Assembly: GCA_965203225.1 (NCBI GenBank)
Contig: CBDBBW010000006.1
Location: 352,040 to 416,039, forward strand
Source of the DNA: Bdellovibrionales bacterium
Lineage (GTDB): Bacteria; Bdellovibrionota; Bdellovibrionia; Bdellovibrionales; UBA1609
Direction of reading: 5' to 3'
Length of the DNA: 64,000 nt
Within the stretch, counting starts at the first letter, position 1. Every line of letters begins with the position of its first letter. The notes beneath the pieces were generated by a model that saw nothing but the letters and a program-made list of their open reading frames with translations, was not told the DNA's origin and ran no database searches. Made by a program: the position numbers and the translations under genes. Shown in pieces: positions 4,118-61,494 of this stretch.

Positions 4118-4208
4118 ATTTGTAAAATTTACTCATTCACTAACTGTTTCAATTTTCAACTAATTTTTTTACTTACTTTTTATAAAAACTGTTATAACTA
4201 TTTATATC
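4118..4208 (+). repeat. ankyrin-cassette 5' leader DNA, copy 0
   Basis: ttgtaaaatttactca..cactaac..tcaattttcaactaattt..tataaaaactgttataa recurs upstream of every MTDLSFKQ start (8206, 9460, 10920) and once as an orphan (~12090-12180). Confidence 0.85.
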
Positions 4209-4805
4209 ATGACTGACTTAAGTTTTAAACAGATAATTGCTATAAACACCGGAGACTTAAAAAGGGCAGGGGCTGTTCTATTGCTGTTTGCCTTAAACTT
4301 CTGTTTTGCTCTTTCTTCCTTTGCTAACATTGAAACAATAGGTTCTTCCAATCCTTGTGTAAGCTTGTTTCAAACAGGTAAGCCTAAACCAGCTGATGCG
4401 CCTAAAAATATAGCTGAATTAGGTTTGGCTGTGACTCAAGGTTTAACGCTCACACCAGAACAAAAAGCATTTTGGGAAATATATCTCAATAATTTTTTTG
4501 AGAATCCTTCAAATACAATAGAAGACATAACAAGAGTTCATGATCTAATAAACCAATACCCGGGTCTTTCTAAACCTTCTTTTAGAGAGCAGGAACTGTC
4601 ATTAAAAGTGAAAAGATATTTGGTTTCAAAAGAGCTGTCGAGCTTTATACAAAGTTTTACAAAAAATAATGGAAAAAGAAGGCTGGTCTTTTTTCAAATT
4701 GAAGAGAACAGGACGGTTTTGGTTAAAAGTTTTGAATCCATCAAGAGCAAAAGAAAGTTCCAGCCAGCGGGGCAAAAGAGAGTTAGAGCCGGAGCTAAGA
4801 GCTAA
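4209..4805 (+). CDS. secreted-leader protein of the ankyrin cassette family (no ANK repeats); possibly the N-terminal piece of a frameshifted larger gene
   Basis: The first ~40 aa (MTDLSFKQIIAINTGDLKRAGAVLLLFALNFCFALSSFAN) are nearly identical to the leaders of the ANK paralogs. The ORF overlaps the out-of-frame ORFs 4669-4896 and 4883-7423. Confidence 0.5.
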   Translation: MTDLSFKQIIAINTGDLKRAGAVLLLFALNFCFALSSFANIETIGSSNPCVSLFQTGKPKPADAPKNIAELGLAVTQGLTLTPEQKAFWEIYLNNFFENPSNTIEDITRVHDLINQYPGLSKPSFREQELSLKVKRYLVSKELSSFIQSFTKNNGKRRLVFFQIEENRTVLVKSFESIKSKRKFQPAGQKRVRAGAKS

Positions 4806-4882
4806 ACTTGTTGATATTTTTGGAGGAGAAGAGTCTCTAAAAAAAATAAGGAACAGCAAGCATTTAGAAGAAGGTATGGATT

Positions 4883-7423
4883 TTGAATGTGTATAAAAAG
4901 CTTGAGGAAGAAAGACAGAAGCTGCTTTTAAAAAATGAGGACATTTCATTTATTTCAAAAGCGATGTTGGATCTTATTCATACAGCTGGTTTTTTTAATA
5001 AGGCTTGGACGAACCAGATAAAGGATAAAGACCCTTTTGTTGTGATAAGGTCTGTGACCAGGATCATTGAAAACAGGGAGCATTTATCATTAGAGCTTGG
5101 TTTTAAGAGTTTTTCAGATCTTAAACGCTCTCTTGGACTAAGCCGTATTGAGAAAGAGTTTTATGATAAAGAGGAGCTTTTGAAACGGCTTAAGTTTTTA
5201 GAGGAGCAAATTAAAGAAAGTGAATCATTTATTGAAGATCAAGAGGTTGTTTATAGAGTGAGAGCCTTAAGACTGCATGAGTCTCCTTTTAGAGGATGTG
5301 TAGGGGGAAGTGACTGTTCCAGCAGGACTTACTTTAAAAAAGGGTTGGATCCTAATTATATTTATTTTACAAAAACTGGATTAGAAGATTCCAAGTCGTC
5401 AGGACAAGTGACGGTTGTTTTAGGAACAGTGAAAGCTGAGGATGGCTCAAAGAAAAAGGTTGCTTTTATAGATAAGATACAAAATTTTTCAAAAGAAGAG
5501 TTGATACCGTTTTTATCAGCAGTTAGGGAAAGCGTGCAGGAAGAAGGTTATATTTTAGCTCTTCCCTTAAATGTGGGAGGTCATAATGGTTTATCTAATA
5601 CGACTAAATTAAGTAATTATGTATCAGAGAGTATTTTGCCTGCTCTTTTGAGGAATAATAAAGTTTTAATAAATTTTACTCCCCTGCCTCATAATTATAA
5701 TGATTTTAAAATTAGACTTATATATTCAAGAACTGAGCAAGGTTTAGATATGATAGAATTTACTTTAAACCCAGGAGATAATGTTCAAATTATACCAGGA
5801 GCTAAATATGAAGATTATAGTGTGGAAGGTTTGAATAAAAGAACTTTTATAGAAGAGCTGTCCAGTTTAAGAGAATCTAAGAACAGAGAAGATTTAAGCG
5901 TATATGTAGATAGTATATCAGCTTTAAATAAATTGAAGGATTTTAAAAAGTTGTTGGGTGAGTCGGAAAAGATTTTAAGAGAGATGTTAGAGGAGACAAG
6001 TTTTTTTAAGGTAAAGAAGAAGATTTTATATGTATTGATTTTAGAGTTTGAGATAGGTCTTTCAGATTTTTTATATATGTTTGAGAGATTTTTTACAGAA
6101 GCTGAAAAAAACTCTTTAAGGTCAGAGATAAGCAACTGGAAGAATTCGAGCAATTGGAAAAAAACAGAGTTTTATGAATTGTTAAGAATAGCGTTTCCTG
6201 TAAGGCCTCAGTTGTCTTATTTTAAAAATCTGTTTAAAAATGATAAGAAGATTATGTCTTATGAGCTAACATTTGTTTTAAAAAAAGGTAGAAAGAAAAA
6301 CCAAAAGGAGTATGAGAGAATCGTCCTGGATTTATTGGAGACAAAAAAATGGTATGATATTAAAGATAATCATAATTTTTTGGTTGCTAAAGTTGGTAAT
6401 ACAAAAATAGTGGAAGCTTTAATAAAAGCTGGAGTGGATGTAAATGCTGTAAATAACGATGGACTCACGGCTTTATGGGTCGCCGCTAGGAATGGTCATA
6501 CAGAAACAGTGGAAGCTTTAATAAGAGCTGGAGCGGATGTAAATGCTGTAAATGCTGTAAATAACGATGGACTCACGGCTTTATGGCTCGCCGCTAGGAA
6601 TGGTCATACAAAAATAGTGGAAGCTTTAATAAAAGCTGGAGTGGATGTAAATGCTGTAAATAACGATGGAAACACGGCTTTGACATTAGCCGCTATGAAT
6701 GGTCATACAGAAACAGTGGAAGCTTTAATAAGAGAGGGAGCGAATGTAAATGCTGTAAATAACGATGGACTCACGGCTTTATGGGTCGCCGCTATGAATG
6801 GTCATACAAAAATAGTGGAAGCTTTAATAAGAGAGGGAGCGAATGTAAATGCTGTAAATAACAAGGGACTCACGGCTTTATGGATCGCCGCTATGAATGG
6901 TCATACAGAAACAGTGGAAGCTTTAATAAGAGAGGGAGCGAATCTAAAGGCTGTAAATAACGATGGACTCATGGCTTTATGGCTCGCCGCTAGGAATGGT
7001 CATACAAAAATAGTGGAAGCTTTAATAAGAGAGGGAGTGGATGTAAATGCTGTAGATATAGATGGAGACACGGCTTTGATTTTTGCCGCTATGAATGGTC
7101 ATACAGAAACAGTGGAAGCTTTAATAAGAGAGGGAGCGAATGTAAATGCTGTAAATAACAAGGGACTCACGGCTTTGACATTAGCCGCTATAAAGATTCA
7201 TACAAAAAAAATAGTGGAAGCTTTAATAAGAGCTGGAGCGGATGTAGAGGCTGTAAATAACAATGGACTCACGGCTTTTTATTTTGCCCCTATGAAGCAT
7301 CATATACAAACAATGGAAGCTTTAGTAAGAGAGAGAGAGCGCGCGAAAGCGGATGTAAATGTTTTAGAAGATGGAAATGTGCGGGAAAAACTTGAGAAAG
7401 AAGATACAAAAACAAATCAGTAG
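4883..7423 (+). CDS. ankyrin-repeat protein with an unrecognised ~490-aa N-terminal region
   Basis: The C-terminal half has ~9-10 consecutive 33-aa ANK units (NNDGLTALW.AA.NGHT..VEALI..GA.VNAV). Only a TTG start is available because the frame opens at 4868. No signal peptide of its own. Confidence 0.7.
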   Translation: MNVYKKLEEERQKLLLKNEDISFISKAMLDLIHTAGFFNKAWTNQIKDKDPFVVIRSVTRIIENREHLSLELGFKSFSDLKRSLGLSRIEKEFYDKEELLKRLKFLEEQIKESESFIEDQEVVYRVRALRLHESPFRGCVGGSDCSSRTYFKKGLDPNYIYFTKTGLEDSKSSGQVTVVLGTVKAEDGSKKKVAFIDKIQNFSKEELIPFLSAVRESVQEEGYILALPLNVGGHNGLSNTTKLSNYVSESILPALLRNNKVLINFTPLPHNYNDFKIRLIYSRTEQGLDMIEFTLNPGDNVQIIPGAKYEDYSVEGLNKRTFIEELSSLRESKNREDLSVYVDSISALNKLKDFKKLLGESEKILREMLEETSFFKVKKKILYVLILEFEIGLSDFLYMFERFFTEAEKNSLRSEISNWKNSSNWKKTEFYELLRIAFPVRPQLSYFKNLFKNDKKIMSYELTFVLKKGRKKNQKEYERIVLDLLETKKWYDIKDNHNFLVAKVGNTKIVEALIKAGVDVNAVNNDGLTALWVAARNGHTETVEALIRAGADVNAVNAVNNDGLTALWLAARNGHTKIVEALIKAGVDVNAVNNDGNTALTLAAMNGHTETVEALIREGANVNAVNNDGLTALWVAAMNGHTKIVEALIREGANVNAVNNKGLTALWIAAMNGHTETVEALIREGANLKAVNNDGLMALWLAARNGHTKIVEALIREGVDVNAVDIDGDTALIFAAMNGHTETVEALIREGANVNAVNNKGLTALTLAAIKIHTKKIVEALIRAGADVEAVNNNGLTAFYFAPMKHHIQTMEALVRERERAKADVNVLEDGNVREKLEKEDTKTNQ
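6360..7330 (+). repeat. 99-bp in-frame coding tandem repeats (ANK units), highly similar at the nucleotide level
   Basis: gtggaagctttaataa.agc/gagggagc.gatgtaaatgctgtaaataa.gatgga..cacggcttt recurs with 99-bp periodicity. There is an extra 9-bp slip (gtaaatgct x3) around 6537-6563. Confidence 0.9.
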
Positions 7424-7484
7424 AAGAAGCTTCTTGTTCTCTTTGACTTATTAACAAGAGAGAGTATCTTACTTCTTAAAAGGA

Positions 7485-7628
7485 TTACACTATGGTTTCT
7501 ATAACATCCCATACTTTATGCAACTCTTTTTCCTTGATGCAATAAGGAGGAAGAATATAAATAACCCCTCCTAAAGGTCTTAAAAACACACCTTGTTTTA
7601 AAGTTTTTTGAAAAGCTTTTTCTGGAAA
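7485..7628 (-). pseudogene. bioA: C-terminal relic of adenosylmethionine-8-amino-7-oxononanoate aminotransferase (BioA-like)
   Basis: The minus-strand translation ..KQGVFLRPLGGVIYILPPYCIKEKELHKVWDVIETIV* matches the conserved BioA C-terminus (E. coli ..[21 protein letters not shown]..). Only ~47 codons remain, and the upstream part is replaced by ankyrin DNA. Confidence 0.6.
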
Positions 7629-7629
7629 A

Positions 7630-7968
7630 GTGGAAGCTTTAATAAGAGCTGGAGTGGATGTAGAGGCTGTAAATAAAAATGGAAACACGGCTTTGATATT
7701 AGCCGCTATGATGATGCGTCATACAGAAACATTGGAAGCTTTAATAAGAGCTGGAGCGGATGTAAAGGCTGTAGATATAGATGGAAACACGGCTTTGAGC
7801 TTTGCCTCTAAGAAGGGTCATACAGAAACAGTGAAAGCTTTAATAAGAGCTGGAGCGGATGTAAAGGCTGAAAATAAATATGGAGAAACAGCTTTGAGTT
7901 TAGCCTCTATGATGGGTTATAAAGAAATAGTGAAAATTTTAGTAAGAGCTGGAGCGAAGCAGATGTAA
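7630..7968 (+). pseudogene. 5'-truncated ankyrin cassette paralog (3 ANK units, no leader)
   Basis: It starts exactly at a VEALIRAG unit boundary with no MTDLSFKQ leader. It ends with the family C-terminus ..ILVRAGAKQM* and is followed by the conserved spacer. Confidence 0.6.
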
Positions 7969-8205
7969 AGGTTTTAAAAGAAATACATAAAGAAGATTAA
8001 AGAAAACAAGATGCACAGAGGCCAAGTGAAAAAGCGGCCAATAAACACTAGCCGGGAATTGTTAAAAAACTCAAAATCTATTTTCAACTAATTTTTTTGT
8101 CTATTTTTGTAAAATTTACTCACATTCACTAACTTTTTCAATTTTAAATTAATTTTTATAAAAACTGTTATAAAAATTTTTTTAGATGTAATAAATATTT
8201 ATGTC
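7969..8205 (+). repeat. conserved inter-cassette spacer, copy 1
   Basis: ..ttttaaaagaaatacataaag.agattaa.gagaaca/gagatgcacagaggccaagtgaaaaagcggccaataaacactagccgg.. plus leader DNA. Near-identical copies follow each ANK gene. Confidence 0.9.
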
Positions 8206-9210
8206 ATGACTGATTTAAGTTTTAAACAGATAATTGCTATAAACGCCGGAACCTTAAAAAAGGCAGGGTCCGTTCTATTGCCGTTTGCCTTAAACTTCTT
8301 TTTTGCTCTTTCTTCCTTTGCTAACAGTAAAACAGGTTCTTCCGACAATTGTTTAAACTTGTTTCAAACAGATAAGACTAACCCAACTGATGCGACTACA
8401 AATATCGCGGATGTAAAGGAATATAAAAACAAGGATTTACTGAACGCCGCTAGGATGAGTGATATAGAAAAAGTGAAAGATTTAATAAGAGATGGAGCGG
8501 AGGTAGAGGCTGTAGATATAAATGGAAAAACGGCTTTGATTTTTGCTGCTATTAAGGGTAATACAGAAATAGTGGAAGCTTTAATAAGAGCTGGAGCGGA
8601 GGTAGAAGCTGTAGATATAAATGGAAAAACGGCTTTGATTTTTGCCGCTATGAATGATCATACAAAAATAGTGAAAGCTTTAATAAAAGCTGGAGTGGAT
8701 GTAAAGGCTGTAGATAGCTTTGGAAACACGGCTTTGATTTTTGCCGCTATTAAGGGTAATACAGAAATAGTGGAAGCTTTAATAAAAGCTGGAGCGGATG
8801 TAAAGGCTGTAACTATCTCTGGAATCACGACTTTGATGTTTGCCGCTATAAAGGATCATGGTCATACAAAAATAGTGAAAGCTTTAATAAAAGCTGGAGT
8901 GGATGTAAAGGCTGTAGATAGCTTTGGAAACACGGCTTTGATTTTTGCCGCTATTAAGGGTAATACAGAAATAGTGAAAGCTTTAATAAAAGCTGGAGCG
9001 GATGTAAAGGCTGTAAATAAAAATGGAGACACGGCTTTGATTTTAGCCGCTAGTGAGGGTCATACAGAAATAGTGGAAGCTTTAATAAAAGCTGGAGCAG
9101 ATTTAAAGGCTGTAAATAAATATAGAGAAACAGCTTTGAGTTCAGCCTATATGAATGGTCATGAAAAAACAGTGAAAGTTTTAGTAGAAGCTGGAGCGAA
9201 GCGGATGTAA
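8206..9210 (+). CDS. secreted ankyrin-repeat protein (8 ANK units)
   Basis: Conserved leader MTDLSFKQIIAINAGTLKKAGSVLLPFALNFFFALSSFAN (Sec-like h-region, SFA-N cleavage-like site), then ANK units, then the family C-terminus VLVEAGAKRM*. Confidence 0.85.
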   Translation: MTDLSFKQIIAINAGTLKKAGSVLLPFALNFFFALSSFANSKTGSSDNCLNLFQTDKTNPTDATTNIADVKEYKNKDLLNAARMSDIEKVKDLIRDGAEVEAVDINGKTALIFAAIKGNTEIVEALIRAGAEVEAVDINGKTALIFAAMNDHTKIVKALIKAGVDVKAVDSFGNTALIFAAIKGNTEIVEALIKAGADVKAVTISGITTLMFAAIKDHGHTKIVKALIKAGVDVKAVDSFGNTALIFAAIKGNTEIVKALIKAGADVKAVNKNGDTALILAASEGHTEIVEALIKAGADLKAVNKYRETALSSAYMNGHEKTVKVLVEAGAKRM

Positions 9211-9459
9211 ATGTTTTAAAAGAAATACATAAAGGAGATTAAGGAGAACAAGATGCACAGAGGCCAAGTGAAAAAGCGGCCAATAAACACTAGCCGGAAA
9301 GTGTTAAAAAACTCAAAACCTATTTTCAACTAATTTTTTTGTCTATTTTTGTAAAATTTACTCACATTCACTAACTTTTTCAATTTTCAACTAATTTTCT
9401 TACTTATGTTTATAAAAACTGTTATAAAATTTTTTTTAGATATTATAAATATTTATAAT
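9211..9459 (+). repeat. conserved inter-cassette spacer, copy 2
   Basis: Same sequence family as 7969-8205. Confidence 0.9.
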
Positions 9460-10656
9460 ATGACTGACTTAAGTTTTAAACAGATAATTGCTATAAACGC
9501 CGGAAACTTAAAAAAGGCAGGGGCTGTTCTATTGCCGTTTGCCTTAAACTTCTGTTTTGCTCTTTCTTCCTTTGCTAACAGTAAAACAGGTTCTTCCGAC
9601 AATTGTTTAAACTTGTTTCAAACAGATAAGACTAACCCAGCTGATGCGACTACAAATATCGCGGATGTAAAGGAATATAAAAACAAGGATTTACTGACCG
9701 CCGCTAGGATGGGTGATATACAAAAATTGAAAGATTTAATAAAAGATGGAGCGGATGTAAAGTTTGCAGATAACGATGGAGTCACGGCTTTGATAGTAGC
9801 CGCTAGGGAGGGTCATACAAAAATAGTGGAAGCTTTAATAAATGCTGGAGCGGAGGTAAATGCAAATAGCTTTGGAGTCACGGCTTTGATAGTAGCCTCT
9901 ATAATGGGTCATATAAAAATAGTGAAAGCTTTAATAAGTGCTGGAGCGAATGTAGAGGCTGTAAATAGATTTGGACACACGGCTTTGATAGTAGCCGCTA
10001 GGGAGGGTCATACAAAAATAGTGGAAGCTTTAATAAATGCTGGAGCGGAGGTAAAGGCTGTAGATATACATGGAGAACCGGCTTTGATATTTGCGGTTAT
10101 GATGGGTCATACAAAAATAGTGGAAGCTTTAATAAGTGCTGGAGCGGATGCAAAGTTTGCAAATAGCTTTGGAGTCACGGCTTTGATAGTAGCCGCTATA
10201 GAGGGTCATACAAAAACAGTGAAAGCTTTAATAAGTGCTGGAGCGGAGGTAAATGCAAATAGCTTTGGACTCGAACTCACGGCTTTGATAGTAGCCTCTA
10301 TAATGGGTCATATAAAAACAGTGAAAGCTTTAATAAGTGCTGGAGCGGAGGTAAAGGCTGTAAATAGCCGTAGAAACACGGCTTTGATTTTTGCCTCTAT
10401 AATGGGTGATATAAAAATAGTGAAAGCTTTAATAAATGCTGGAGCGGAGGTAAAGGCTGTAAATAGCAGTAGAAATACGGCTTTGATATTTGCGGTTATG
10501 ATGGGTCATACAAAAATAGTGGAAGCTCTAATAAGTGCTGGAGCGGAGGTAAAGGCTGTAAATAAATATGGAGAAACAGCTTTGAGTTTAGCCTCTATGA
10601 GGGGTTATAAAGAAATAGTGAAAGTTTTAGTAAAAGCTGGAGCGAAGCGGATGTAA
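9460..10656 (+). CDS. secreted ankyrin-repeat protein (10 ANK units)
   Basis: The ATG at 9460 gives the conserved MTDLSFKQ leader. The 9406 start in the ORF track runs through leader DNA that is non-coding in the paralogs. Ends VLVKAGAKRM*. Confidence 0.85.
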   Translation: MTDLSFKQIIAINAGNLKKAGAVLLPFALNFCFALSSFANSKTGSSDNCLNLFQTDKTNPADATTNIADVKEYKNKDLLTAARMGDIQKLKDLIKDGADVKFADNDGVTALIVAAREGHTKIVEALINAGAEVNANSFGVTALIVASIMGHIKIVKALISAGANVEAVNRFGHTALIVAAREGHTKIVEALINAGAEVKAVDIHGEPALIFAVMMGHTKIVEALISAGADAKFANSFGVTALIVAAIEGHTKTVKALISAGAEVNANSFGLELTALIVASIMGHIKTVKALISAGAEVKAVNSRRNTALIFASIMGDIKIVKALINAGAEVKAVNSSRNTALIFAVMMGHTKIVEALISAGAEVKAVNKYGETALSLASMRGYKEIVKVLVKAGAKRM

Positions 10657-10919
10657 ATGTTTTAAAAGAAATACATAAAGGAGATTAAGGAGAACGAGAT
10701 GCACAGAGGCCAAGTGAAAAAGCGGCCAATAAACACTAGCCGGAAAGTGTTAAAAAACTTAAAAACTATTTTCAACTAATTTTTTATCTATTTTTGTAAA
10801 ATTTACTCACATTCACTAACTTTTTCAATTTTCAACTAATTTTCTTACTTATTTTTATAAAAACTGTTATAAAAATTTTTTTAGATATTATAAATATTTA
10901 TGTTATAAATATTTATAAT
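10657..10919 (+). repeat. conserved inter-cassette spacer, copy 3
   Basis: Same family, with a small internal duplication (ataaatatttat x2) just before the ATG. Confidence 0.9.
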
Positions 10920-11987
10920 ATGACTGATTTAAGTTTTAAGCAGATAATTGCTATAAACGCCGGAACCTTAAAAAAGGCAGGGTCTGTTCTATTGCTGTTT
11001 GCCTTAAACTTCTTTTTTGCTCTTTCTTCCTTTGCTAACATTAAAACAGTTCATTCCAACAATTGTTCAAAATTGTTTCAAGATAAGCCTAAACCTAAAA
11101 ATATAGCGGATATAAAGGAATATAAAAACAAGGATTTACTGAACGCCGCTAGGATGGGTGATATACAAAAAGTGGAAGATTTAATAAACGATGGAGCGGA
11201 TGTAAAGTTTGAAGATAACGATGGAGTCACAGCTTTGATATTAGCCGCTATGGAAGGTCATACAAAAATAGTGAAAGCTTTAATAAGTGCTGGAGCGGAG
11301 GTAAATGCAAATAGCTCTGGACTCACGGCTTTGATAGTAGCCTCTATAAAGGGTTATAAAGAAATAGTGGAAATTTTAACAAGAGCTGGAGCGGAGGTAG
11401 AGGCTGTAAATATAGCTGGAAAAACAGCTTTGATGTCAGCCGCTATTGAGGGTTATATAAAAGCTTCAATAAGTGCTGGAACAGATGTAAAGTTTGCAGA
11501 TAACGATGGAGTCACGGCTTTGATATTAGCCGCTATGGAGGGTCATAAAAACACAGTGAAAGCTTTAATAAGAGCTGGAGCGGATGTAAAGGCAAATAGC
11601 TCTGGACTCACGGCTTTGATTTTTGCCGCTATGAATGGTCATATAAAAACAATGGAACCTTTAATAAGCGCTGGAGCTGATGTAGAGGCTGTAGATATCT
11701 TTGGAAAAACGGCTTTGATTTACGCCGCTATGAATGGTCATATAAAAACAATGGAACTTTTAATAAGTTTTGAAGCGGATGTAAAGGCTGTAGATATAGA
11801 TGGAAACACGGCTTTGATTTACGCCGCTATGAATGGTCATATAAAAACAATGGAACTTTTAATAAGTGCTGGAGTGGATGTAAAGGCTGTAAATAAATAT
11901 GGAGAAACAGCTTTGAGTTTAGCCCTTATTATGGGTCATGAAAAAACAGCGAAAGTTTTAGTAAAAGCTGGAGCGAAGCGGATGTAA
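10920..11987 (+). CDS. secreted ankyrin-repeat protein (9 ANK units)
   Basis: Conserved leader, ANK units, and C-terminus VLVKAGAKRM*. Confidence 0.85.
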   Translation: MTDLSFKQIIAINAGTLKKAGSVLLLFALNFFFALSSFANIKTVHSNNCSKLFQDKPKPKNIADIKEYKNKDLLNAARMGDIQKVEDLINDGADVKFEDNDGVTALILAAMEGHTKIVKALISAGAEVNANSSGLTALIVASIKGYKEIVEILTRAGAEVEAVNIAGKTALMSAAIEGYIKASISAGTDVKFADNDGVTALILAAMEGHKNTVKALIRAGADVKANSSGLTALIFAAMNGHIKTMEPLISAGADVEAVDIFGKTALIYAAMNGHIKTMELLISFEADVKAVDIDGNTALIYAAMNGHIKTMELLISAGVDVKAVNKYGETALSLALIMGHEKTAKVLVKAGAKRM

Positions 11988-12180
11988 ATGTTTTAAAAGA
12001 AATACATAAAGGAGATTAAGGAGAACAAGATGCACAGAGGCCAAGTGAAAAAGCGGCCAATAAACACTAGTCGGAATTTGTTAAAAAACTCAAAACCTAT
12101 TTTCAACTAATTTTTTTACTGAATTTTTATAAAAACTGTTATAAAATTTTTTTTAGATGTAATAAATATTTATTATAATT
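11988..12180 (+). repeat. orphan inter-cassette spacer (trailer + leader DNA with no gene after it)
   Basis: The full 3' trailer is present, plus leader DNA shortened by a deletion between the two ttcaactaattt sub-repeats. It ends ..aataaatatttattataattaaagg where the paralogs have ATGACTGA. Confidence 0.85.
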
Positions 12181-12202
12181 AAAGGAAATGGCCGGCGCCG
12201 AC

Positions 12203-45942: not shown

Positions 45943-46857
45943 ATGAAATCTATAGTAACGATATTTGTTATTTTGCTCCTTTCCCCTTGGGGATCAGCGG
46001 ATTGGTTTGCTCCAAACTTGAGTTTGGAGGATAAAATCAAACTGACACGACAAATAAGAGAACAAATGACAAGAAATGCTCCTCCACATAAAACACAAAG
46101 CCAAAATCATCATGGGAGAAAAACAGCAAATTATTCCCGATCCCCAACTATATCAGCCAAAGATCATCATAATATTAAAATGATCCTCAGTCTGCCTTTG
46201 GAAAACAGAATACAGGCTTTATCCAACTACAAAGCAAATATTTTTTTTATATTAAAACAACTGGCATTTTCAAATAAAGAAAAAATGCCGATCCAGTGGA
46301 AAGCCTTAATCAGCCTGGCTCGTTTGTATCCTGAACAGTCTCACCCTTTGGTATTAAAGGCCCTCCGAAGTTCCACTTGGTTTTTGAGAAATGCCGGTTT
46401 GATCGCTATGGAAATCATCAACTCCAAGGAGAGTATAAGGTGGGCCGGTCGTTTTCTGAATGACCCCTCTTTGATTGTCAGAACAGCCGCGGTGGGAATA
46501 ATTAAAAAACACAAAGCCACTCAATATAAAATTCAGTTATTGCAAAAACTAAATGCGCCGGATAGCTTTCATAAAAATCAGAGTTTATGGATTCGTCATC
46601 ATATTGTATCCGCTCTGGCAGATTTTTGTGAACCTGGTGAAGAAAAACGGTTTATTTCCTTTCTACATGATCCGGATGAGACTCTTCACCCTTTTGCCAT
46701 CACCGCTTTAGAAAAATTAACCGGAAAAACATTTCCCTACTCCGCCAATGACGAAAAGAAAACTGTAGTGGAAATGCAAAAAAACAAATGGATCAATTGG
46801 TGGTCCAAGTCCCGAAACAATTCAGCGCCGGCACGAAACAATTCAGCGCAACTATAA
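45943..46857 (+). CDS. secreted HEAT-like repeat protein
   Basis: N-terminal signal-like MKSIVTIFVILLLSPWGSA. Helical repeats of the type ..VR.AA...I.. (LRSSTWFLRNAGLIAME; DPSLIVRTAAVGIIKK). Confidence 0.4.
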   Translation: MKSIVTIFVILLLSPWGSADWFAPNLSLEDKIKLTRQIREQMTRNAPPHKTQSQNHHGRKTANYSRSPTISAKDHHNIKMILSLPLENRIQALSNYKANIFFILKQLAFSNKEKMPIQWKALISLARLYPEQSHPLVLKALRSSTWFLRNAGLIAMEIINSKESIRWAGRFLNDPSLIVRTAAVGIIKKHKATQYKIQLLQKLNAPDSFHKNQSLWIRHHIVSALADFCEPGEEKRFISFLHDPDETLHPFAITALEKLTGKTFPYSANDEKKTVVEMQKNKWINWWSKSRNNSAPARNNSAQL

Positions 46858-48669: not shown

Positions 48670-49165
48670 TTTCCCATATCCAACCCGGCTAAAGGTGTGT
48701 AGATGAACCAGGGTAGGGATCAAAGATATTTGTATATATATTCCACACATACTATCGGTAAAAGCATTTTATAATATATACACTGACAGGAATTTACAAA
48801 ACAAACCGCCAGCACCAACCGGCAGAATCACACAATTCCTGTGCCTGAACTATTAAAAGCTCCAAACAATATAAGCCCATTTTCCCATATCCAACCCGGC
48901 TAAAGGTGTGTAGATGAACCAGGGTAGGGATCAAAGATATTTGTATATATATTCCACACATACTATCGGTAAAAGCATTTTATAATATATACACTGACAG
49001 GAATTTACAAAACAAACCGCCAGCACCAACCGGCAGAATCACACAATTCCTGTCCTCCTTCCCGGTGAGGAGAATTTCCGGCTTTGACCGCCAGCACCAA
49101 CCGGCAGAATCACACAATTCCTGTGCCTGAACTATTAAAAGCTCCAAATAATATAAGCCCATTTT
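48670..49165. repeat. 211-bp tandem duplication (~2.2 copies) that includes the last ~31 nt of dacB
   Basis: Copy 1 is 48670-48880 and copy 2 is 48881-49052. A 35-bp insert follows, then a partial third copy at 49088-49165 that is the native dacB 3' end. ttaaaagctccaaa(c/t)aatataagcccatttt occurs at 48853-48884 and 49135-49165. Confidence 0.85.
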
Positions 49166-50604
49166 CGAAACAGATCTTCCGCTTTTTTCTTCAGGGAGAC
49201 AGAACCATTGAAAAGAAAAACAAAGACTCTTTTTTTACTGCTTCGTGTTATTACATAGCCAGCCAACCCTGAAACTCCGTTTATACTTCCTGTTTTAGCG
49301 TGGATGCGACCTCTTAATGCAGAATTTTTAAAATATTTTTTTAAAGTGCCGTCTTCACCGGACAGCGGCAAAGCGGATTCAAACTCCGGTTGCAAAGGAT
49401 GGTTCAGCCAGTACCTTAAAACCGTCAATAGATGCTTCGGCTTTACCCTATTTTCCCGGCTTAAGCCGGAAGCCTGAATCATACTATATTCCTGAGGTGC
49501 AATACCGATTTTTTGAATGTGTTTTTTGATTATTTTCAGCCCGTCTTTTAAATTACCCGTTTTCCCCGTCAACTCCACAACCATATTTTTCACCAACATC
49601 TCCACCATGAAATTATTGGAATATTTCATCATCAATTCAATATGCTCCGTGATCTGCCGGCTTTGCCATTCGGCCATAACAAAGGCATTATGCGGCGCCT
49701 TTCCGCGTCTGAGCTTCCCGGTAATATTGATTCCTCTTTGCTTCAGAAACTCAATAGCATTCCGGCCGGCCCATATTTCCGGATGAAGGATATTCCTATA
49801 AACAAGCACTTCTTTATGATGAGCAGAAAGGTATCCGCTTATTTTTAAAGACTCCCCTGAACTAGTTTCCCTCTTTCGTTGAATGGATATATGTTTTTTT
49901 CGCCGTCCATTTACTGTTTTTGTTTGATTTTCAATGGAAAAAAAATAAGAAGAGGCAGGATCAACTGTTACTCTCAAGAGGCTTCCCTCTTTTCTTCCCG
50001 GACGCAAATACAGGTTGGCTGTGTTCCAGTTAAAGGACAAAGCCCCTACAGGGGCGTCATAACTGGAATGAGAAGACCGGGGAAGCCGACGGCCTTTTCT
50101 CTTTCCGTCAAAACGGCTGTCATCCACGACCAAATCACCTTCAATTCTCTTTAACTCAGTTCGGGTTAGATTATTAATCAGATTCCACAGACTTTCCGAA
50201 ACAAACCCCGGATCTCCTCCTCCTTTCAAATAAAGATCCTCTTTTAAAACAGCGGTTTTTGCTTTATTTTTCGCCAAAAAACGGGTGCTGAATTGAAGAG
50301 AGGGTGGTAATAAATCCAACAAAGCTGAAGCGGTAAAAATTTTTATCAGGGAAGCTGGAATAAAACTCTGATCCGCGTTCAGTTGATAGAAAATCCGATC
50401 CGCATCAGCCACAATCACTCCCAGTTGACGGGATGAAACAGCACTTTCCTTCAGCGCTTTCCTAAGTTCCTCACTAAGAGACCTTTCTTTTTTTAACTCC
50501 CCCCGATTGTCAACAGCCCATAAGGAACCACTCCACAAAGGAATGAGAACAATGCACCCAAAAAGCAAAAGTAATCTTACTGATCTTTTTTTTTCCTTTT
50601 GCAT
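49135..50604 (-). CDS. dacB: D-alanyl-D-alanine carboxypeptidase/endopeptidase (PBP4 family)
   Basis: SxxK (ASLIK), SxN (YSNN) and KTG (HAKTGS) motifs. Signal peptide after the internal start MQKEKKRSV (50604). Confidence 0.85.
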   Translation of the reverse strand: MQKEKKRSVRLLLLFGCIVLIPLWSGSLWAVDNRGELKKERSLSEELRKALKESAVSSRQLGVIVADADRIFYQLNADQSFIPASLIKIFTASALLDLLPPSLQFSTRFLAKNKAKTAVLKEDLYLKGGGDPGFVSESLWNLINNLTRTELKRIEGDLVVDDSRFDGKRKGRRLPRSSHSSYDAPVGALSFNWNTANLYLRPGRKEGSLLRVTVDPASSYFFSIENQTKTVNGRRKKHISIQRKRETSSGESLKISGYLSAHHKEVLVYRNILHPEIWAGRNAIEFLKQRGINITGKLRRGKAPHNAFVMAEWQSRQITEHIELMMKYSNNFMVEMLVKNMVVELTGKTGNLKDGLKIIKKHIQKIGIAPQEYSMIQASGLSRENRVKPKHLLTVLRYWLNHPLQPEFESALPLSGEDGTLKKYFKNSALRGRIHAKTGSINGVSGLAGYVITRSSKKRVFVFLFNGSVSLKKKAEDLFRKWAYIIWSF

Positions 50605-50691
50605 ATAATAACCTTGAAAAACAGAAATTAATTCATAGACTACACTGTAGTGCAAAAAATATCACTTTACCACCGTATTCTTTTTAATATC

Positions 50692-58747: not shown

Positions 58748-61489
58748 TTAGTTTCCGCCCAATATCTCAGCTATTATTCTATGAACTTGGCCGCCGGTGG
58801 AGTCCTGAGAGATTTTAAAATGCCAATTTTGTTTCAAATCTTCTGAAACAGCTTTGCACCAATTTTTCATAAAATCCCATTTCTGAATATCTCTTTTCTT
58901 TTTAATTCCTTTCACTTCAAGTATTAAATGATCTCCATTGAACAGCTTTACAATAAAGTCCGGTGTGTAATTTCTCATTTTGCCTTTCTCATCTATATAA
59001 TCAATGTTAAATCCAAGGTGATCATTTTTTACCCATGCAAAAACTTCCGTGTTCTTATCCAATTCCCTGGCATGAGTGTATTCCCAAGAGCTATCTACTA
59101 CGCATTGGTTCATGTGAGTTTTTTTGAAAATAGCTGTCTTCTTTTTTGTCCACCATTCCTGAATCTCACTTGTGGAGGAAAACTGAGAGTTTTCATTATA
59201 TATGACAGATAATTCTTCAATAGAATATTTTTGTATTAAGTTAAAAACTTTATTTACAATTTCATGCATTTTTATCATTACAATCAGGTCTTTTCTTTCT
59301 TTTTCATAACTTGGTTTTATTCTGAACTTTGAAGAATTTATAAATTGCTCTACAAGTTGAAAAATCATTTTAATAGCATAATGTTTTAAAATTCCTTTTT
59401 TCCATTCAAGTTGGCTTTTATCATAAATTTGGGCTGTAATTCTCAACATCAAAGTTTGCATCCTGTCAGGCTGATACTCTTTTTCAAAAAATTCCTGAAG
59501 ACTTGTAATTTCTATATTTGCATAGCTTCGTTTCCCGTCAATCACGGGAGCTAATTCCTGGATTTTTGGAATACTGGAAACATCAACTGTAAATACAGGC
59601 ATGGATTTAAAATCAATTCTTAATTCCGGCCTTAGTTGATAATCTATTCTCTCTACATTAGGCCATGTTATTGCATATTGAGATTTTTCCTTTTCAGGAA
59701 AAATGCAATTTCTTGGAATTTCCTCTTTTTTGCCTGTGTCACTGCCTTCTTGAGGAAGATAAGCAAAAGGAACACCAAGAACATTGACATATTCTGATTC
59801 AAACATTCCATTCTCGTTCAACTCGTAAGACATTCGTCTTAAGCCTCTTCCAATAGTCTGTTCACAAAGCAACTGACTGCTGAAAGCCCTTAGCCCCATG
59901 ATATGGCTTACTGTTTGACAATTCCAACCTTCAGACAACATAGCAACAGAAATAATATGATGTATATATTGTCCACCAGACTTGATTTTTCCGACAACAG
60001 CAAGTCTATCCCGTGTGGCTTCATCCTCTTCCATTCCTGAATAAATTTTTAACATTTTTTCTGAACCTTTAAATATCTCAGGAGCAGGAATATCATTATT
60101 GTTAAAGCTGTATTCCACTCTGTCCGCTGTCTCTTTTCTGTTTACAATGGAAATCATTACAGGAGGACAAAACTCTTTTGAATTTTTACAATTCTCTTTC
60201 CAATCATCATACTTTTTGCTCCAACTGTGTGAAAGATGTGTATAAGCCATTTTTACTATGTCTGGTAAAGACTCTGTTTCTTTTGCTTTTCTATTCAAGT
60301 CAGGCTTCACTTCCTCATTTTCGTAAATATGATAAAGTTTGGGCTTTAAATGTTTGGCATCGGCTGAAGCATCATCACCTACTGCAAATTTTGGAGTTTT
60401 AACAAGCCCGGATTCAATAGCATCAGTCAGTCCAAAATCACTGATAATCCATTCAAATAAATTTCTCTCATCTGCTGTTTTTCCTGTTGGGGCATAAGGA
60501 GTGGCGGAAAAATCAAATATCCGGTTGATGCCAATTTTCCTATTGATGCGATCCAAGCCTTCAATCCATTTTGTTGCTTTTTCTATATCTTCTTTCGTCA
60601 AGTCATCCGTTTTTTTTATTTTCATTTCTGAACGATACCGCCAGGCATGGTGAGCTTCATCATTTAAAACAACAATGTTTTTTGATGTAGCTAAATCTTC
60701 CAACACTTCTCTTGTATAAGCATAGTCGCTTTTAACACCTCTTTTGTCCAGGCCTTTTCTTTTCTCTATTTGTTCTTCCGTTTCCCATTGAAGCTGATGC
60801 CAGTTTTTTATCAGCACTTTACCCTGTCTGAATTTTTCCTGCCATTCATTTGGTATAATTTTATATTCTCTGTAATAATTACTTTCTGATGATATGTCTA
60901 AAACACGCAGTCTTTCCTTAACTGTCAAATTAGGAGCAACAATAAATATGTTCTTAGAAAATCTTGTGTCTCTTGGATAAGCGACCTTATTAAGAATTTG
61001 CCAGGCAATGGTCATAGCCATAACGACTGTTTTCCCTGTCCCTGTGGCCATTTTACAGCAAAGCCTATCTAATTTTTCATCTTTGGGTATTTTAAGCCCC
61101 TGTCTGAAAGCATCCCTGGCTTCTGTAAGAAAAATAAGGGTTTCAATAGCTTCCAACTGACAGAAAAAGAAATCATATTTTCTTCCTGAATCTTCTGATT
61201 TTGTATTCCAAAATTCCAGTAACCTTCTGGTGACTCCTGTTATTCCTGAATAGTCGTCTTTTTTCCATTTTTGCATTCTTTCTCTTATTCCATTCACAAG
61301 TGGAATTTCTTTAACTATTCCATACTCGTCATAAGATTTGTGTTTGGAACTGGCTATAATATAACTGGCCGGTCTTCTGCCTTGTTTAAGGACAAATTCT
61401 TTTATTGTTTTGTCAAATTTCCAATGTTGATTGGGTTCTTTAAAAGGGGAATTGATTATAAGTTGTTTAATGGGTTTTGGTGAGGACAT
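58748..61489 (-). CDS. res: type III restriction enzyme Res subunit (SF2 helicase + C-terminal PD-(D/E)xK nuclease)
   Basis: Motif I KMATGTGKT, motif II VLNDEAHHAW (DEAH), a later SEGWN..Q.IGRGLRR region, and a C-terminal ..YTPDFIV..LILEVKG nuclease-like motif. It starts 5 bp after mod. Confidence 0.85.
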   Translation of the reverse strand: MSSPKPIKQLIINSPFKEPNQHWKFDKTIKEFVLKQGRRPASYIIASSKHKSYDEYGIVKEIPLVNGIRERMQKWKKDDYSGITGVTRRLLEFWNTKSEDSGRKYDFFFCQLEAIETLIFLTEARDAFRQGLKIPKDEKLDRLCCKMATGTGKTVVMAMTIAWQILNKVAYPRDTRFSKNIFIVAPNLTVKERLRVLDISSESNYYREYKIIPNEWQEKFRQGKVLIKNWHQLQWETEEQIEKRKGLDKRGVKSDYAYTREVLEDLATSKNIVVLNDEAHHAWRYRSEMKIKKTDDLTKEDIEKATKWIEGLDRINRKIGINRIFDFSATPYAPTGKTADERNLFEWIISDFGLTDAIESGLVKTPKFAVGDDASADAKHLKPKLYHIYENEEVKPDLNRKAKETESLPDIVKMAYTHLSHSWSKKYDDWKENCKNSKEFCPPVMISIVNRKETADRVEYSFNNNDIPAPEIFKGSEKMLKIYSGMEEDEATRDRLAVVGKIKSGGQYIHHIISVAMLSEGWNCQTVSHIMGLRAFSSQLLCEQTIGRGLRRMSYELNENGMFESEYVNVLGVPFAYLPQEGSDTGKKEEIPRNCIFPEKEKSQYAITWPNVERIDYQLRPELRIDFKSMPVFTVDVSSIPKIQELAPVIDGKRSYANIEITSLQEFFEKEYQPDRMQTLMLRITAQIYDKSQLEWKKGILKHYAIKMIFQLVEQFINSSKFRIKPSYEKERKDLIVMIKMHEIVNKVFNLIQKYSIEELSVIYNENSQFSSTSEIQEWWTKKKTAIFKKTHMNQCVVDSSWEYTHARELDKNTEVFAWVKNDHLGFNIDYIDEKGKMRNYTPDFIVKLFNGDHLILEVKGIKKKRDIQKWDFMKNWCKAVSEDLKQNWHFKISQDSTGGQVHRIIAEILGGN

Positions 61490-61494
61490 ACAAT

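Follow-up and report, generated by a model that had tools for sequence, protein, structure and literature searches.

Multi-copy, recombining ankyrin genes with export signals are already well documented in other bacteria. Signal-peptide ankyrin proteins of uncultured sponge symbionts reportedly alter amoebal phagocytosis, and for a Bdellovibrionota MAG associated with a sponge 12 Ank domains have been described. The ANK genes of Wolbachia are multi-copy and change in size by gain and loss of repeats via short direct repeats and intragenic recombination (PMC3563639). Bd3460 of Bdellovibrio bacteriovorus consists of a signal peptide and six ankyrin repeats only and acts in periplasmic self-protection (Lambert et al., 2015, PMC4686830). 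Here we analyzed an ankyrin gene array of about 8 kb in a window of 64,000 nucleotides (the whole stretch of DNA examined), which comes from a host that protein searches showed to be Bdellovibrionota-like.

We confirmed that the tandem array is real. Flanked by an acyl-CoA dehydrogenase gene and fusA, it comprises five gene copies and an orphan block, six loci in all. On the plus strand three short genes are intact: g2 (8206-9210, 334 aa), g3 (9460-10656, 398 aa from the conserved MTDL start) and g4 (10920-11987, 355 aa). The listed ORF of g3 begins at 9406, with an extension that the other copies do not conserve. The three genes have in common a 40-aa N-terminal leader, followed by a linker (shortened in g4), 8-10 ankyrin units and an AGAKRM-stop end (VLVEAGAKRM in g2, VLVKAGAKRM in g3 and g4). 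Our unit counts agree with the 8-10 given by the initial annotation: N-cap plus 7 in g2 (8 units, with a C-cap), N-cap plus 9 in g3 (10 units) and N-cap plus 8 in g4 (9 units, one of only 30 aa). Pfam Ank_2 E-values for the three full genes were 2e-94, 1e-84, and 2e-67, and Ank_2 bit scores of 392, 311, 280, and 224 against a gathering cut-off of 27.3 place the array proteins among ankyrin-repeat proteins. Their top PDB match was a consensus-designed 12-repeat DARPin (E 5.8e-135). A 99-bp period makes ankyrin arrays difficult to assemble, and one gene could in principle be expanded to several by repeat mis-assembly. However, the copies differ by 5-15% and are unlike in unit order, unit length and linker indels, unique sequence anchors the array on both sides, a unique aminotransferase remnant lies inside it, and the 562,677-bp contig carries housekeeping genes of which the large ones in the window are intact. 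We concluded that the array is not an assembly error; such an artefact is extremely improbable.

The conserved trailer and the conserved upstream DNA, first described as two elements, are indeed conserved, but they form a single contiguous intergenic block of 190-260 bp. The block lies on the plus strand at 7969-8205 (copy 1), 9211-9459 (copy 2), 10657-10919 (copy 3) and 11988 to ∼12180 (the orphan), with pairwise identities of 92-97%: copies 2 and 3 are 97% identical to each other, while copy 1 and the orphan are each 92-94% identical to the other copies. Copy 1 contains a hairpin at 8035-8054. The 90 bp upstream of the first leader (4119-4208, plus strand) are homologous to the 3' part of the block that precedes g2, g3, and g4. 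A 21-mer from the upstream part of the block was found five times in the window (4177, 8153, 9407, 10852, and, in the orphan, 12124) against a chance expectation of 0.01, in agreement with the five loci recognized earlier. The orphan block has an internal deletion, is not followed by a gene, and stops 22 nt short of the stop codon of fusA (12203, minus strand). The cassettes recur with periods of 1254, 1460, and ∼1271 bp. These had been thought to differ only by the number of 99-bp units, which did not hold: units of 90, 96, 102, and 105 bp are also present, g4 has a 12-15-nt deletion in its linker, and intergenic indels likewise alter the spacing.

No convincing promoter was found for the array, no plus-strand terminator was detected in the intergenic blocks, and an Rfam search of the array gave no RNA family. 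Several mobile or variable systems were considered and rejected. There was no integrase among the ORFs scanned, and, unlike the cassettes of an integron array, the genes are paralogous and were duplicated along with their spacers; the inverted repeats of the intergenic blocks are A+T-rich low-complexity matches only and not attC sites. A diversity-generating retroelement was dismissed, no reverse transcriptase being found among the annotated ORFs. The homopolymer tracts of the upstream block vary by A/T substitution and not in length, and were not regarded as phase-variable.

A fifth gene copy, which the initial annotation had overlooked, lies at 7626-7968 (plus strand). It is 5'-truncated and lacks a leader, consisting of part of a unit and three further units with a RAGAKQM-stop end, and it has its own trailer (TRF array at 7625-7956; Pfam Ank E 6.6e-26). 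The last units of this copy and of g3 share 95% identity. Adjacent to it, at 7485-7625 on the minus strand, is the C-terminal remnant (∼46 aa) of a class-III, BioA-like aminotransferase; the Pfam Aminotran_3 match covers profile positions 357-403 of 403 with E 2.5e-5, which is below the gathering score. The remnant is cut where the ankyrin fragment starts. In relatives at 78-79% EF-G identity the gene order mae-thl-fadJ-hbd-rpsL-rpsG-fusA is kept, purD follows fusA, and there is no array at the locus. A GTDB scan with EF-G was uninformative on taxonomy and synteny, with only ∼50% identical sequences among the matches listed.

The first leader-bearing locus (g1, 4209-7423, plus strand) had been grouped with the cassettes, but it is a gene of another type, large and split by two frameshifts; that it represents a parent-type gene, and the short genes its domain-loss derivatives, had been overlooked. 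Piece A (4209-4712, frame 0) encodes the 40-aa leader together with a conserved Cys and the beginning of the family N-terminal region, and its listed ORF extends out of frame to 4805. The first frame change is near 4710-4716, within AACAGGACGG. Piece B (4713-4882, frame 1) joins piece A to the long ORF in a three-frame translation, and a T4 run (4881-4884) is the site of the second frameshift. Piece C (4883-7423) is an ORF of 846 aa. Two helical regions flank a GNAT-like core at 5225-5812, and about 10 ankyrin units follow at 6350-7420; Pfam matched this piece to Ank families and to no others. The protein family consensus (QxxANLGxW..K.. and ILxLYKKLxxER) runs on across both frameshifts. In tblastn the N-termini of family members aligned to the 4209 ORF and resumed at 4880 in another frame, residues 8-165 of members P0003, P0005, P0006, and P0007 aligning to piece A. 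The match to the long g1 ORF begins at residue ∼190-270 of family proteins that are 800-1200 aa in length.

The g1 family contains at least 295 representative clusters at E <= 1e-3, and 200 at E <= 1e-30 (representatives were labeled P0003-P0151). Its layout is a signal peptide-like N-terminus, a Cys, a helical region, the GNAT-like core and C-terminal ankyrin repeats. The best match to g1 is P0003 (52% identity, E 5.5e-125), and g1 has the invariant family motif R..L...E.PFR.C..G.DCS...DPN..Y.T.T, whose invariant Cys, Asp and Cys are C139, D144 and C145 in the g1 ORF. Some members lack a long ankyrin array and have few or weak ankyrin matches, with an FGE-sulfatase domain on the C-terminal side of these. 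The family is uncharacterised: it has no Pfam model, and a cluster look-up of ten members gave no name. At 13 other loci the family genes are single, in one case paired, and have no ankyrin-only neighbors.

An AF2 model of the core domain (pLDDT 80.4, pTM 0.81) was compared with the PDB by Foldseek. All best matches were GNAT-fold proteins or domains, at moderate strength (best E 1.7e-4, TM 0.43-0.55), and a 489-aa model gave the same outcome. The g1 core is thus predicted to have a GNAT fold, with a moderate match. The acetyl-CoA motif A (Q/R-x-x-G-x-G/A) is absent, the loop after strand 4 (DKIQNFSKEEL) having no glycine. Pfam gave no acetyltransferase match for g1 (E <= 0.01) or six homologues (E <= 0.1), and a PDB profile search gave ankyrin proteins only among the 60 best matches listed.

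Comparison of g2 with g1 by blastn showed 83% identity over 310 nt (8106-8411 vs. 4119-4417). Past that stretch, no homology is seen until the ankyrin repeats. The short genes therefore retain 300 nt of the 5' end of a g1-type gene (upstream DNA, leader and linker) fused to ankyrin repeats, and the entire ∼650-aa non-ankyrin part of the g1 family is missing from g2, g3, and g4. As judged from these alignments, the comparison demonstrates that the three genes are domain-loss derivatives of the parent-type gene, the putative enzyme-like domain being gone.

The caps, the leader and the intergenic DNA behave as positional homologues between genes, and C-caps are up to 95% identical. The internal units have their closest relatives in their own gene at fixed offsets of two, three or four units. 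The nearest-relative units are u2-u6 and u3-u7 within g1, u2-u4 and u3-u5 within g2, u1-u5 and u2-u6 within g3, and u1-u4 within g4. The higher-order periods reported by TRF were 198, 303, 399, and 285 bp. Blocks of internal units have probably been duplicated independently in each gene. The earlier proposal of a locally amplified family with a common leader was borne out, and that of unit-number change by recombination is supported by this pattern. A full-length gene followed by partial copies with common flanking homology could also be a silent reservoir, in which an expressed parent-type gene takes up units from ankyrin-only copies by gene conversion and so changes its target specificity, as in antigenic variation. 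But start codon, leader and upstream block are present in every cassette, the units of g1 are closest to other g1 units and not to cassette units, and g1 is itself frameshifted. We give hardly any credence to a reservoir.

Substitution rates differ between the leader and the mature parts. The leader has 92-97% nucleotide identity and a pN/pS of 0.15-1.0 in five gene pairs out of six (synonymous changes are absent from the remaining pair, g1 vs. g3), whereas the mature parts are 85-93% identical with a pN/pS of 1.2-7.6. The mature-part ratios at or above 1 are based on 40-55 substitutions per pair, and by our own binomial estimate from the counts a clear departure from neutrality was seen in the g2/g4 pair only. 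Fast amino acid change in the mature part is supported by its contrast with the leader. The seven highest-entropy unit positions include 2, 10, 11, 32, and 33, that is five of the seven are positions that we take to be those randomised in designed ankyrin binders (DARPins). A check of rates per ankyrin position gave a different outcome from the one anticipated: in 22 units of exactly 33 aa, pN/pS was 1.09 at surface positions and 2.6 elsewhere. Surface positions were not singled out because synonymous differences are likewise high at the variable codons. As the position-specific contrast did not hold, no site-specific positive selection is claimed. We consider unlikely a more far-reaching reading, in which the parent family would be undescribed exported acyltransferase-type effectors of uncultured Bdellovibrionota and the array a positively selected, targeting-module-only offshoot, with proteins of prey or protist hosts countered by a diversifying set of adaptors or decoys.

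The same pN/pS would arise from relaxed constraint, and the array could be a set of decaying, largely non-functional duplicates that drift neutrally and head for loss. Ratios near or above 1 speak for it, and three of the six loci are already dead (g1 frameshifted, 7626-7968 truncated, 11988-12180 an orphan). A Shine-Dalgarno motif is absent at all four leader ATGs and present in ∼60% of the other window ORFs, GC3 is 27-30% vs. 39-49% in housekeeping genes, and a relative (L001) has only fragments of g1-type genes. On the other side, three ORFs of 334-398 codons are intact, the variation clusters at canonical binding positions, and the leader and intergenic DNA are better conserved than the mature coding part, where uniform drift predicts otherwise. 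We consider general decay of the array to be unlikely.

The first 39 nt of the leader matched four sites (4209, 8206, 9460, and 10920) at <=1 mismatch, with zero expected by chance, and as protein the leader occurs within the 64 kb only at those sites; the four near-identical leaders reported at the outset are therefore well founded. In a search of 5.8 billion proteins the leader had one match, an 85-aa remnant, and in JGI metagenomes none. It has an n-region (residues 1-19, with K7, K18, and K19), an h-region (residues 20-39, 11-residue hydropathy windows of 1.4-2.1) and a c-region that reads S-F-A|N. Parent-family members have shorter, classical signals, and 94-110 of 131 full-length members have an N-terminal hydrophobic signal-like segment. 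From these features and the family context, Sec export of g2, g3, and g4 via the leader is plausible. The hydrophobic core is 19-20 residues, long for a cleaved signal, with a mean hydropathy of 1.63 (hand calculation), and for this reason it could alternatively be an uncleaved membrane anchor. Other leader types were rejected: there is no lipoprotein motif (L-[AS]-[GA]-C), the sole Cys being 9-10 residues past SFA|N (SDNC, SNPC, SNNC); no RR was present within residues 1-40 of any copy, which excluded a Tat leader; and a prepilin-type leader was ruled out from sequence. No secretion system other than Sec was visible in the 64 kb, and no T4SS gene was among its annotated ORFs.

The initial annotation had pointed to a eukaryotic target. 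This was not upheld, as the host is Bdellovibrionota-like and that group has a signal-peptide ankyrin protein with a periplasmic self-protection role (PMC4686830). The exported paralogues might accordingly be immunity proteins that remain in the periplasm and block secreted lytic or toxic enzymes of the producer itself, as Bd3460 does for DD-endopeptidases. The array proteins also have a signal-like leader and ankyrin repeats only, Bd3460 is a small signal-peptide ankyrin protein working in the periplasm (PMC4686830), and the parent gene codes for a putative exported enzyme. However, g1, the sole candidate partner, is frameshifted, and the cassettes have no partner gene for an enzyme or toxin; Bd3460 adjoins a DD-endopeptidase gene, while the neighbors here are acyl-CoA dehydrogenase and fusA. 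The only Peptidase_S13 gene in the window (49135-50655) is full length and lies 37 kb away. The proteins also look like consensus ankyrin designs, and Bd3460 was not represented among the 60 best PDB sequence matches listed. Self-protection of this kind seems to us improbable.

On balance we think it fairly probable that the array arose by recent amplification and represents a lineage-specific family of ankyrin-repeat binding proteins, probably with an export signal, in an uncultured Bdellovibrionota-like host. As the sequence shows, a g1-type gene was copied with ∼90 bp of upstream DNA, and the copy shed ∼1.9 kb internally, which joined the leader and a 26-30-residue linker straight to the ankyrin repeats. 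The short gene and its ∼250-bp block were then probably multiplied head-to-tail by unequal homologous recombination, and blocks of two to four units may subsequently have been duplicated inside each copy. Decay shows in the two frameshifts in g1, in the intergenic block left geneless, and in the loss of the 5' half of one copy and most of the aminotransferase gene, most simply by a single deletion. The leader would direct Sec export, by cleavage after SFA or as an N-terminal anchor, and the near-consensus ankyrin solenoid would bind extracytoplasmic protein targets through its variable positions. Paralogues would differ chiefly at those positions and in repeat number, and the target could be prey, host or self.

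Within 8 kb the locus records an ankyrin family at different points of its history: loss of the enzyme-like domain from the parent, tandem amplification, independent change in repeat number, fast amino acid change at predicted binding positions, and gene death of three kinds. The analysis also draws attention to a large unnamed family (predicted export, GNAT-like core, ankyrin repeats) in Bdellovibrionota-like metagenomic genomes, which could bear on how these predators or symbionts handle prey or hosts. The array itself is a real but fairly ordinary case of family growth, variation and decay. Like the ANK families of Wolbachia, it is multi-copy and changes in unit number, and the Wolbachia families vary between close relatives (Siozios et al., 2013, PMC3563639). 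Wolbachia ANK genes are mostly dispersed and often phage-associated, and head-to-tail cassettes with a common leader and block are not described there (PMC3563639); Wolbachia is also an obligate intracellular alphaproteobacterium, whereas the host here is Bdellovibrionota-like and its array proteins bear an N-terminal Sec-like leader. That hydrophobic leader is atypical for the T4SS Ank effectors of Legionella and Coxiella, which have a C-terminal translocation signal and no Sec leader. The ankyrin proteins of sponge symbionts belong to a eukaryotic-host setting, which for the present organism would be hypothetical. Bd3460 comes from the same phylum-level group and shares the signal-like leader and the ankyrin-only architecture, but it is a single gene adjoining the endopeptidase gene bd3459, in contrast to a tandem family without a partner enzyme gene (PMC4686830). 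The signal peptide/GNAT-like/ankyrin family has g1 as a member, and the leader and linker of g2, g3, and g4 come from its 5' end.

In the region 4118-12202, four open reading frames, at 4209, 8206, 9460 and 10920, begin with a common 40-residue leader, MTDLSFKQIIAIN.G.LK.AG.VLL.FALNF.FALSSFAN. Its first 39 nt were found in 4 copies at ≤1 mismatch and in none of 100 window shuffles, which confirms the shared leader of the initial annotation. The claim of common upstream DNA at five loci was borne out by a 21-mer present five times (0.01 expected by chance), the fifth copy being an orphan at 12124. Three of the frames are complete short ankyrin genes on the plus strand, each encoding an N-terminal capping unit plus ankyrin units: g2 (8206-9210, 334 aa, 7 units), g3 (9460-10656, 398 aa, 9 units) and g4 (10920-11987, 355 aa, 8 units). 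Pfam Ank_2 E-values were 2e-94 to 2e-67, and all three end in VLV[EK]AGAKRM and a stop codon, in agreement with the earlier description of three full genes of 8-10 ANK units ending AGAKRM. The trailer and upstream DNA are conserved as described, but they are not separate elements: together they form one continuous intergenic block of 190-260 bp, present in four copies (7969-8205, 9211-9459, 10657-10919 and 11988-~12180; pairwise identity 92-97%). The cassettes (short gene plus spacer) do not differ solely by whole 99-bp units, as had been proposed. Their periods are 1254, 1460 and about 1271 bp, units of 90, 96, 102 and 105 bp also occur, the g4 linker carries a 12-15-nt deletion, and the spacers contain small indels. 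We concluded that the array is a real feature and that its first description was mostly correct.

The locus at 4209 has the common leader but is a larger, broken gene of another kind. The ORF at 4209-4805 and an 846-aa ORF at 4883-7423 are parts of a single gene, g1, which needs two frame changes, near 4710-4716 (in AACAGGACGG) and at a T4 run at 4881-4884. Away from this locus, conserved genes of large size have unbroken frames (fusA, 699 aa; fadJ, 768 aa; malic enzyme, 773 aa; ActB-like, 1018 aa), which makes the two frameshifts within 170 bp more likely real than sequencing noise. Comparison of g2 (8106-8411) with g1 (4119-4417) gave a DNA match of 83% over 310 nt, which takes in the leader together with the ~90 bp ahead of it and runs through the linker as far as ..NIA[ED]; beyond it, similarity returns only inside the ankyrin repeats. 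Genes g2-g4 are therefore domain-loss derivatives in which the parent 5' end is fused directly to ankyrin repeats and the GNAT-like part, which takes up about 1.9 kb of g1, is lost. The C-terminal cap (..AGAKRM) and trailer of g2-g4 are absent from the 3' end of the present g1, and the ankyrin portion may therefore stem from another family member.

The non-ankyrin part (489 aa; window 4883-6349) of the 846-aa ORF of g1 served as query in an exhaustive HMMER search, which detected 295 representative proteins at E ≤ 1e-3, 200 of them at E ≤ 1e-30. The parent family comprises at least 295 clusters at 50% identity (homologues P0003-P0151), and among the matches listed the proteins are mostly 800-1200 aa long, with the match typically starting at residue 190-270. 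Over roughly the first 200 residues these proteins have an N-terminus resembling a signal peptide, followed within a few residues by a Cys, and a conserved stretch to which the 4209 ORF aligns (..ELG.A.T.GL.L...Q......Y...FF..P....PxLSKPxFREQ..). A strongly hydrophobic 12-residue window lies inside the first 90 residues in 94-110 of 131 representatives (≥700 aa). The C-terminal modules differ across the family: most members carry ankyrin repeats, and two of 11 proteins from a word-index search (P0274 and P0053) have an FGE-sulfatase domain, with few or weak ankyrin matches. At 13 other loci the parent-family genes are single, apart from one pair, and none has ankyrin-only neighbors.

The ~650-aa non-ankyrin part gave no Pfam match in g1 or six homologues, the best 60 matches listed in a PDB profile search were ankyrin proteins only, and neither a Pfam model nor a name for the family was found in any source. 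AlphaFold models were obtained for the 489-aa segment (11 sequences; mean pLDDT 72.7) and for the alpha/beta core alone (window 5225-5812; pLDDT 80.4, pTM 0.81). Foldseek comparison of both models with the PDB returned GNAT-fold proteins almost exclusively (best E 1.7e-4, TM-scores 0.43-0.55), including aminoglycoside acetyltransferases, Eis-like proteins and the GNAT toxins TacT, AtaT and GmvT, so a GNAT fold of the g1 core is moderately supported by modeling. We use the term "GNAT-like" rather than GNAT member because the loop that follows strand 4 in the g1 core reads DKIQNFSKEEL and lacks the canonical acetyl-CoA motif, and because the most conserved family residues (the invariant motif R..L...E.PFR.C..G.DCS, then DPN..Y.T.T) lie partly in a low-confidence loop.

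We compared the ankyrin units of g1-g4 and a truncated copy unit by unit at the DNA level. Internal units are most similar to units of their own gene that lie a fixed number of units away, the closest pairs being u2-u6 and u3-u7 in g1, u2-u4 and u3-u5 in g2, u1-u5 and u2-u6 in g3, and u1-u4 and u6-u7 in g4 (units numbered per gene). Higher-order TRF periods differ from gene to gene (198, 303, 399 and 285 bp) and agree with these pairs. The units at the gene ends follow another pattern, in which the last units, and in g3 and g4 also the first, are homologous by position from one gene to another: the truncated copy and g3 share 95% identity in their last unit, g3 and g4 93% in their first. This pattern points to gene duplication first, followed by multi-unit duplications arising independently inside each copy, the order predicted by the unequal recombination suggested initially. 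Dead members are the frameshifted g1, the copy at 7626-7968, which starts mid-unit, and the orphan block at 11988-12180, which 22 nt of unique sequence separate from the fusA stop codon. A class-III aminotransferase (BioA-like) remnant on the minus strand (7485-7625, last ~46 codons; Pfam Aminotran_3 positions 357-403, E 2.5e-5) ends exactly where the truncated copy begins (7626). One deletion running from inside the aminotransferase gene through its 5' end and the cassette upstream block into the ankyrin repeats probably explains both truncations, that of the aminotransferase gene and that of the 5' half of the cassette. Array anatomy, parentage, duplication pattern and decay are all demonstrated at the sequence level.

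Nei-Gojobori counts were restricted to positionally homologous segments. The leader (92-97% nt identity) gave pN/pS of 0.15-1.0, with no synonymous change between g1 and g3; the linker plus N-cap (86-93%) gave 1.9-6.8 and the last two units (85-89%) 1.2-7.6. Intergenic DNA, to which pN/pS is not applicable, is 92-97% identical. The mature coding sequence is therefore less conserved than the non-coding spacer and the leader, and most coding differences among the array genes alter the amino acid. The counts are small, with 40-55 substitutions per gene pair, and g2 vs. g4 alone is clearly off neutrality (rough binomial estimate); strong purifying selection on the mature part is excluded, and positive selection and relaxed constraint both fit. 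In the 22 units that are exactly 33 residues long, entropy is highest at positions 33, 2, 32, 7, 22, 10 and 11, five of which correspond to positions randomized in designed ankyrin binders (DARPin design). The proposal of a diversifying locus agrees with the fast amino-acid change in the mature part, but the per-position pN/pS contrast over the same units did not single out the variable positions.

The leader has an n-region of 19 residues with three lysines and a hydrophobic stretch of 19-20 residues (11-residue hydropathy windows 1.4-2.1), and ends in S-F-A|N; it contains neither a lipobox nor a twin arginine. The long hydrophobic stretch could be an uncleaved anchor, and the ankyrin domain would face the periplasm under the cleaved-signal and anchor readings alike. 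A second exported protein of the window, an SBP_bac_5 protein at 50650, may share the long n-region if its start codon is right, in which case this style would seem not to be unique to the array. Another exported-type alpha-solenoid in the window is a 304-aa HEAT-repeat protein (45943-46857) with a classical short signal peptide (MKSIVTIFVILLLSPWGSA). No Shine-Dalgarno motif precedes any of the four leader ATGs (4184-4208, 8181-8205, 9435-9459 and 10895-10919), vs. ~60% of other long ORFs in the window that have one. The DNA before these ATGs is A+T-rich, and g3 and g4 have a TATAAT-like hexamer directly against the start codon. The intergenic blocks contain no plus-strand intrinsic terminator. 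A G+C-rich trailer hairpin with its T-run on the minus strand is found at 8035-8054, 9277-9296 and 10723-10742, with a mutated copy near 12055-12075. These hairpins are oriented as minus-strand terminators, against transcription from the fusA side and not from the ankyrin genes; in the hairpin closest to fusA the stem is mutated from GCCGG to GTCGG.

The window, which lies on a 562,677-bp contig, encodes an EF-G with 74-79% identity to MAG proteins labeled "Bdellovibrionales bacterium" at NCBI and about 55% to Bdellovibrio and Pseudobdellovibrionaceae proteins. The comparison of gene order took in two relatives with an EF-G identity of 78-79% (loci L082 and L083; L084 is a duplicate of the latter). 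Both keep the order malic enzyme, thiolase, fadJ, unknown gene, hbd, rpsL, rpsG and fusA. In L082 (12103-13350) and L083 (12215-13462), purD directly follows fusA, then variable genes, and neither relative has an ankyrin gene after fusA; in the window, the fusA 3' end (12203) is followed by the array and then acyl-CoA dehydrogenase, ferredoxin and tyrS. This places the array at a break in synteny. The GC3 of the array genes is 27-30% vs. 39-49% for housekeeping genes, a low value of the sort typically seen in accessory DNA. A type III restriction-modification pair on the minus strand (58748-63948; ResIII helicase with a TnsA-like endonuclease domain, and an N6/N4 methylase) has a GC3 of 27-29%, similar to the array and well under housekeeping genes. 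A 2Fe-2S ferredoxin-like protein at 2106-2741 carries a very basic Lys/Arg/Asn-rich C-terminal tail of ~100 residues (...KNNKNRQNKK...KQKKRRNRNKKANFKYRRK). Searched against 5.8 billion proteins, the leader gave a single match, an 85-aa remnant on a 1.9-Mb ENA contig (L001), and none in JGI metagenomes. L001 also holds a second g1-like fragment, about 85% identical to the matching g1 part by reading of the sequence. The two remnants of g1-type genes are separate (2283-2630 and 10001-10258); in one, a piece from mid-domain runs straight into an ankyrin unit, and the other is a leader piece adjoining an RloB/AAA_21 gene pair, which suggests the same birth-and-death process in that genome.

The array is best read as a family that is specific to its lineage, was amplified recently and encodes ankyrin binding proteins with a probable export signal; it goes back, through domain loss, to a protein that combined a GNAT-like core with ankyrin repeats, and it is shaped by birth-and-death evolution. 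We infer export, extracytoplasmic target binding and adaptive diversification of its putative products. The eukaryotic target proposed initially found no support; an ankyrin protein of this phylum, Bd3460, has a signal peptide and shields the wall of the predator itself from the endopeptidases that it secretes (PMC4686830). That precedent makes self-protection of the Bd3460 type a live rival by analogy, although the Bd3460 model expects an adjacent enzyme gene and the array lacks one. The amplified ankyrin family exemplifies an already known kind of gene family, and the unnamed parent family is the more novel element. Sponge Bdellovibrionota MAGs rich in ankyrin are on record (PMC9944714). The closest documented parallel for the dynamics of the array is the Wolbachia ANK gene families, which grow and shrink via direct repeats and intragenic recombination (PMC3563639).
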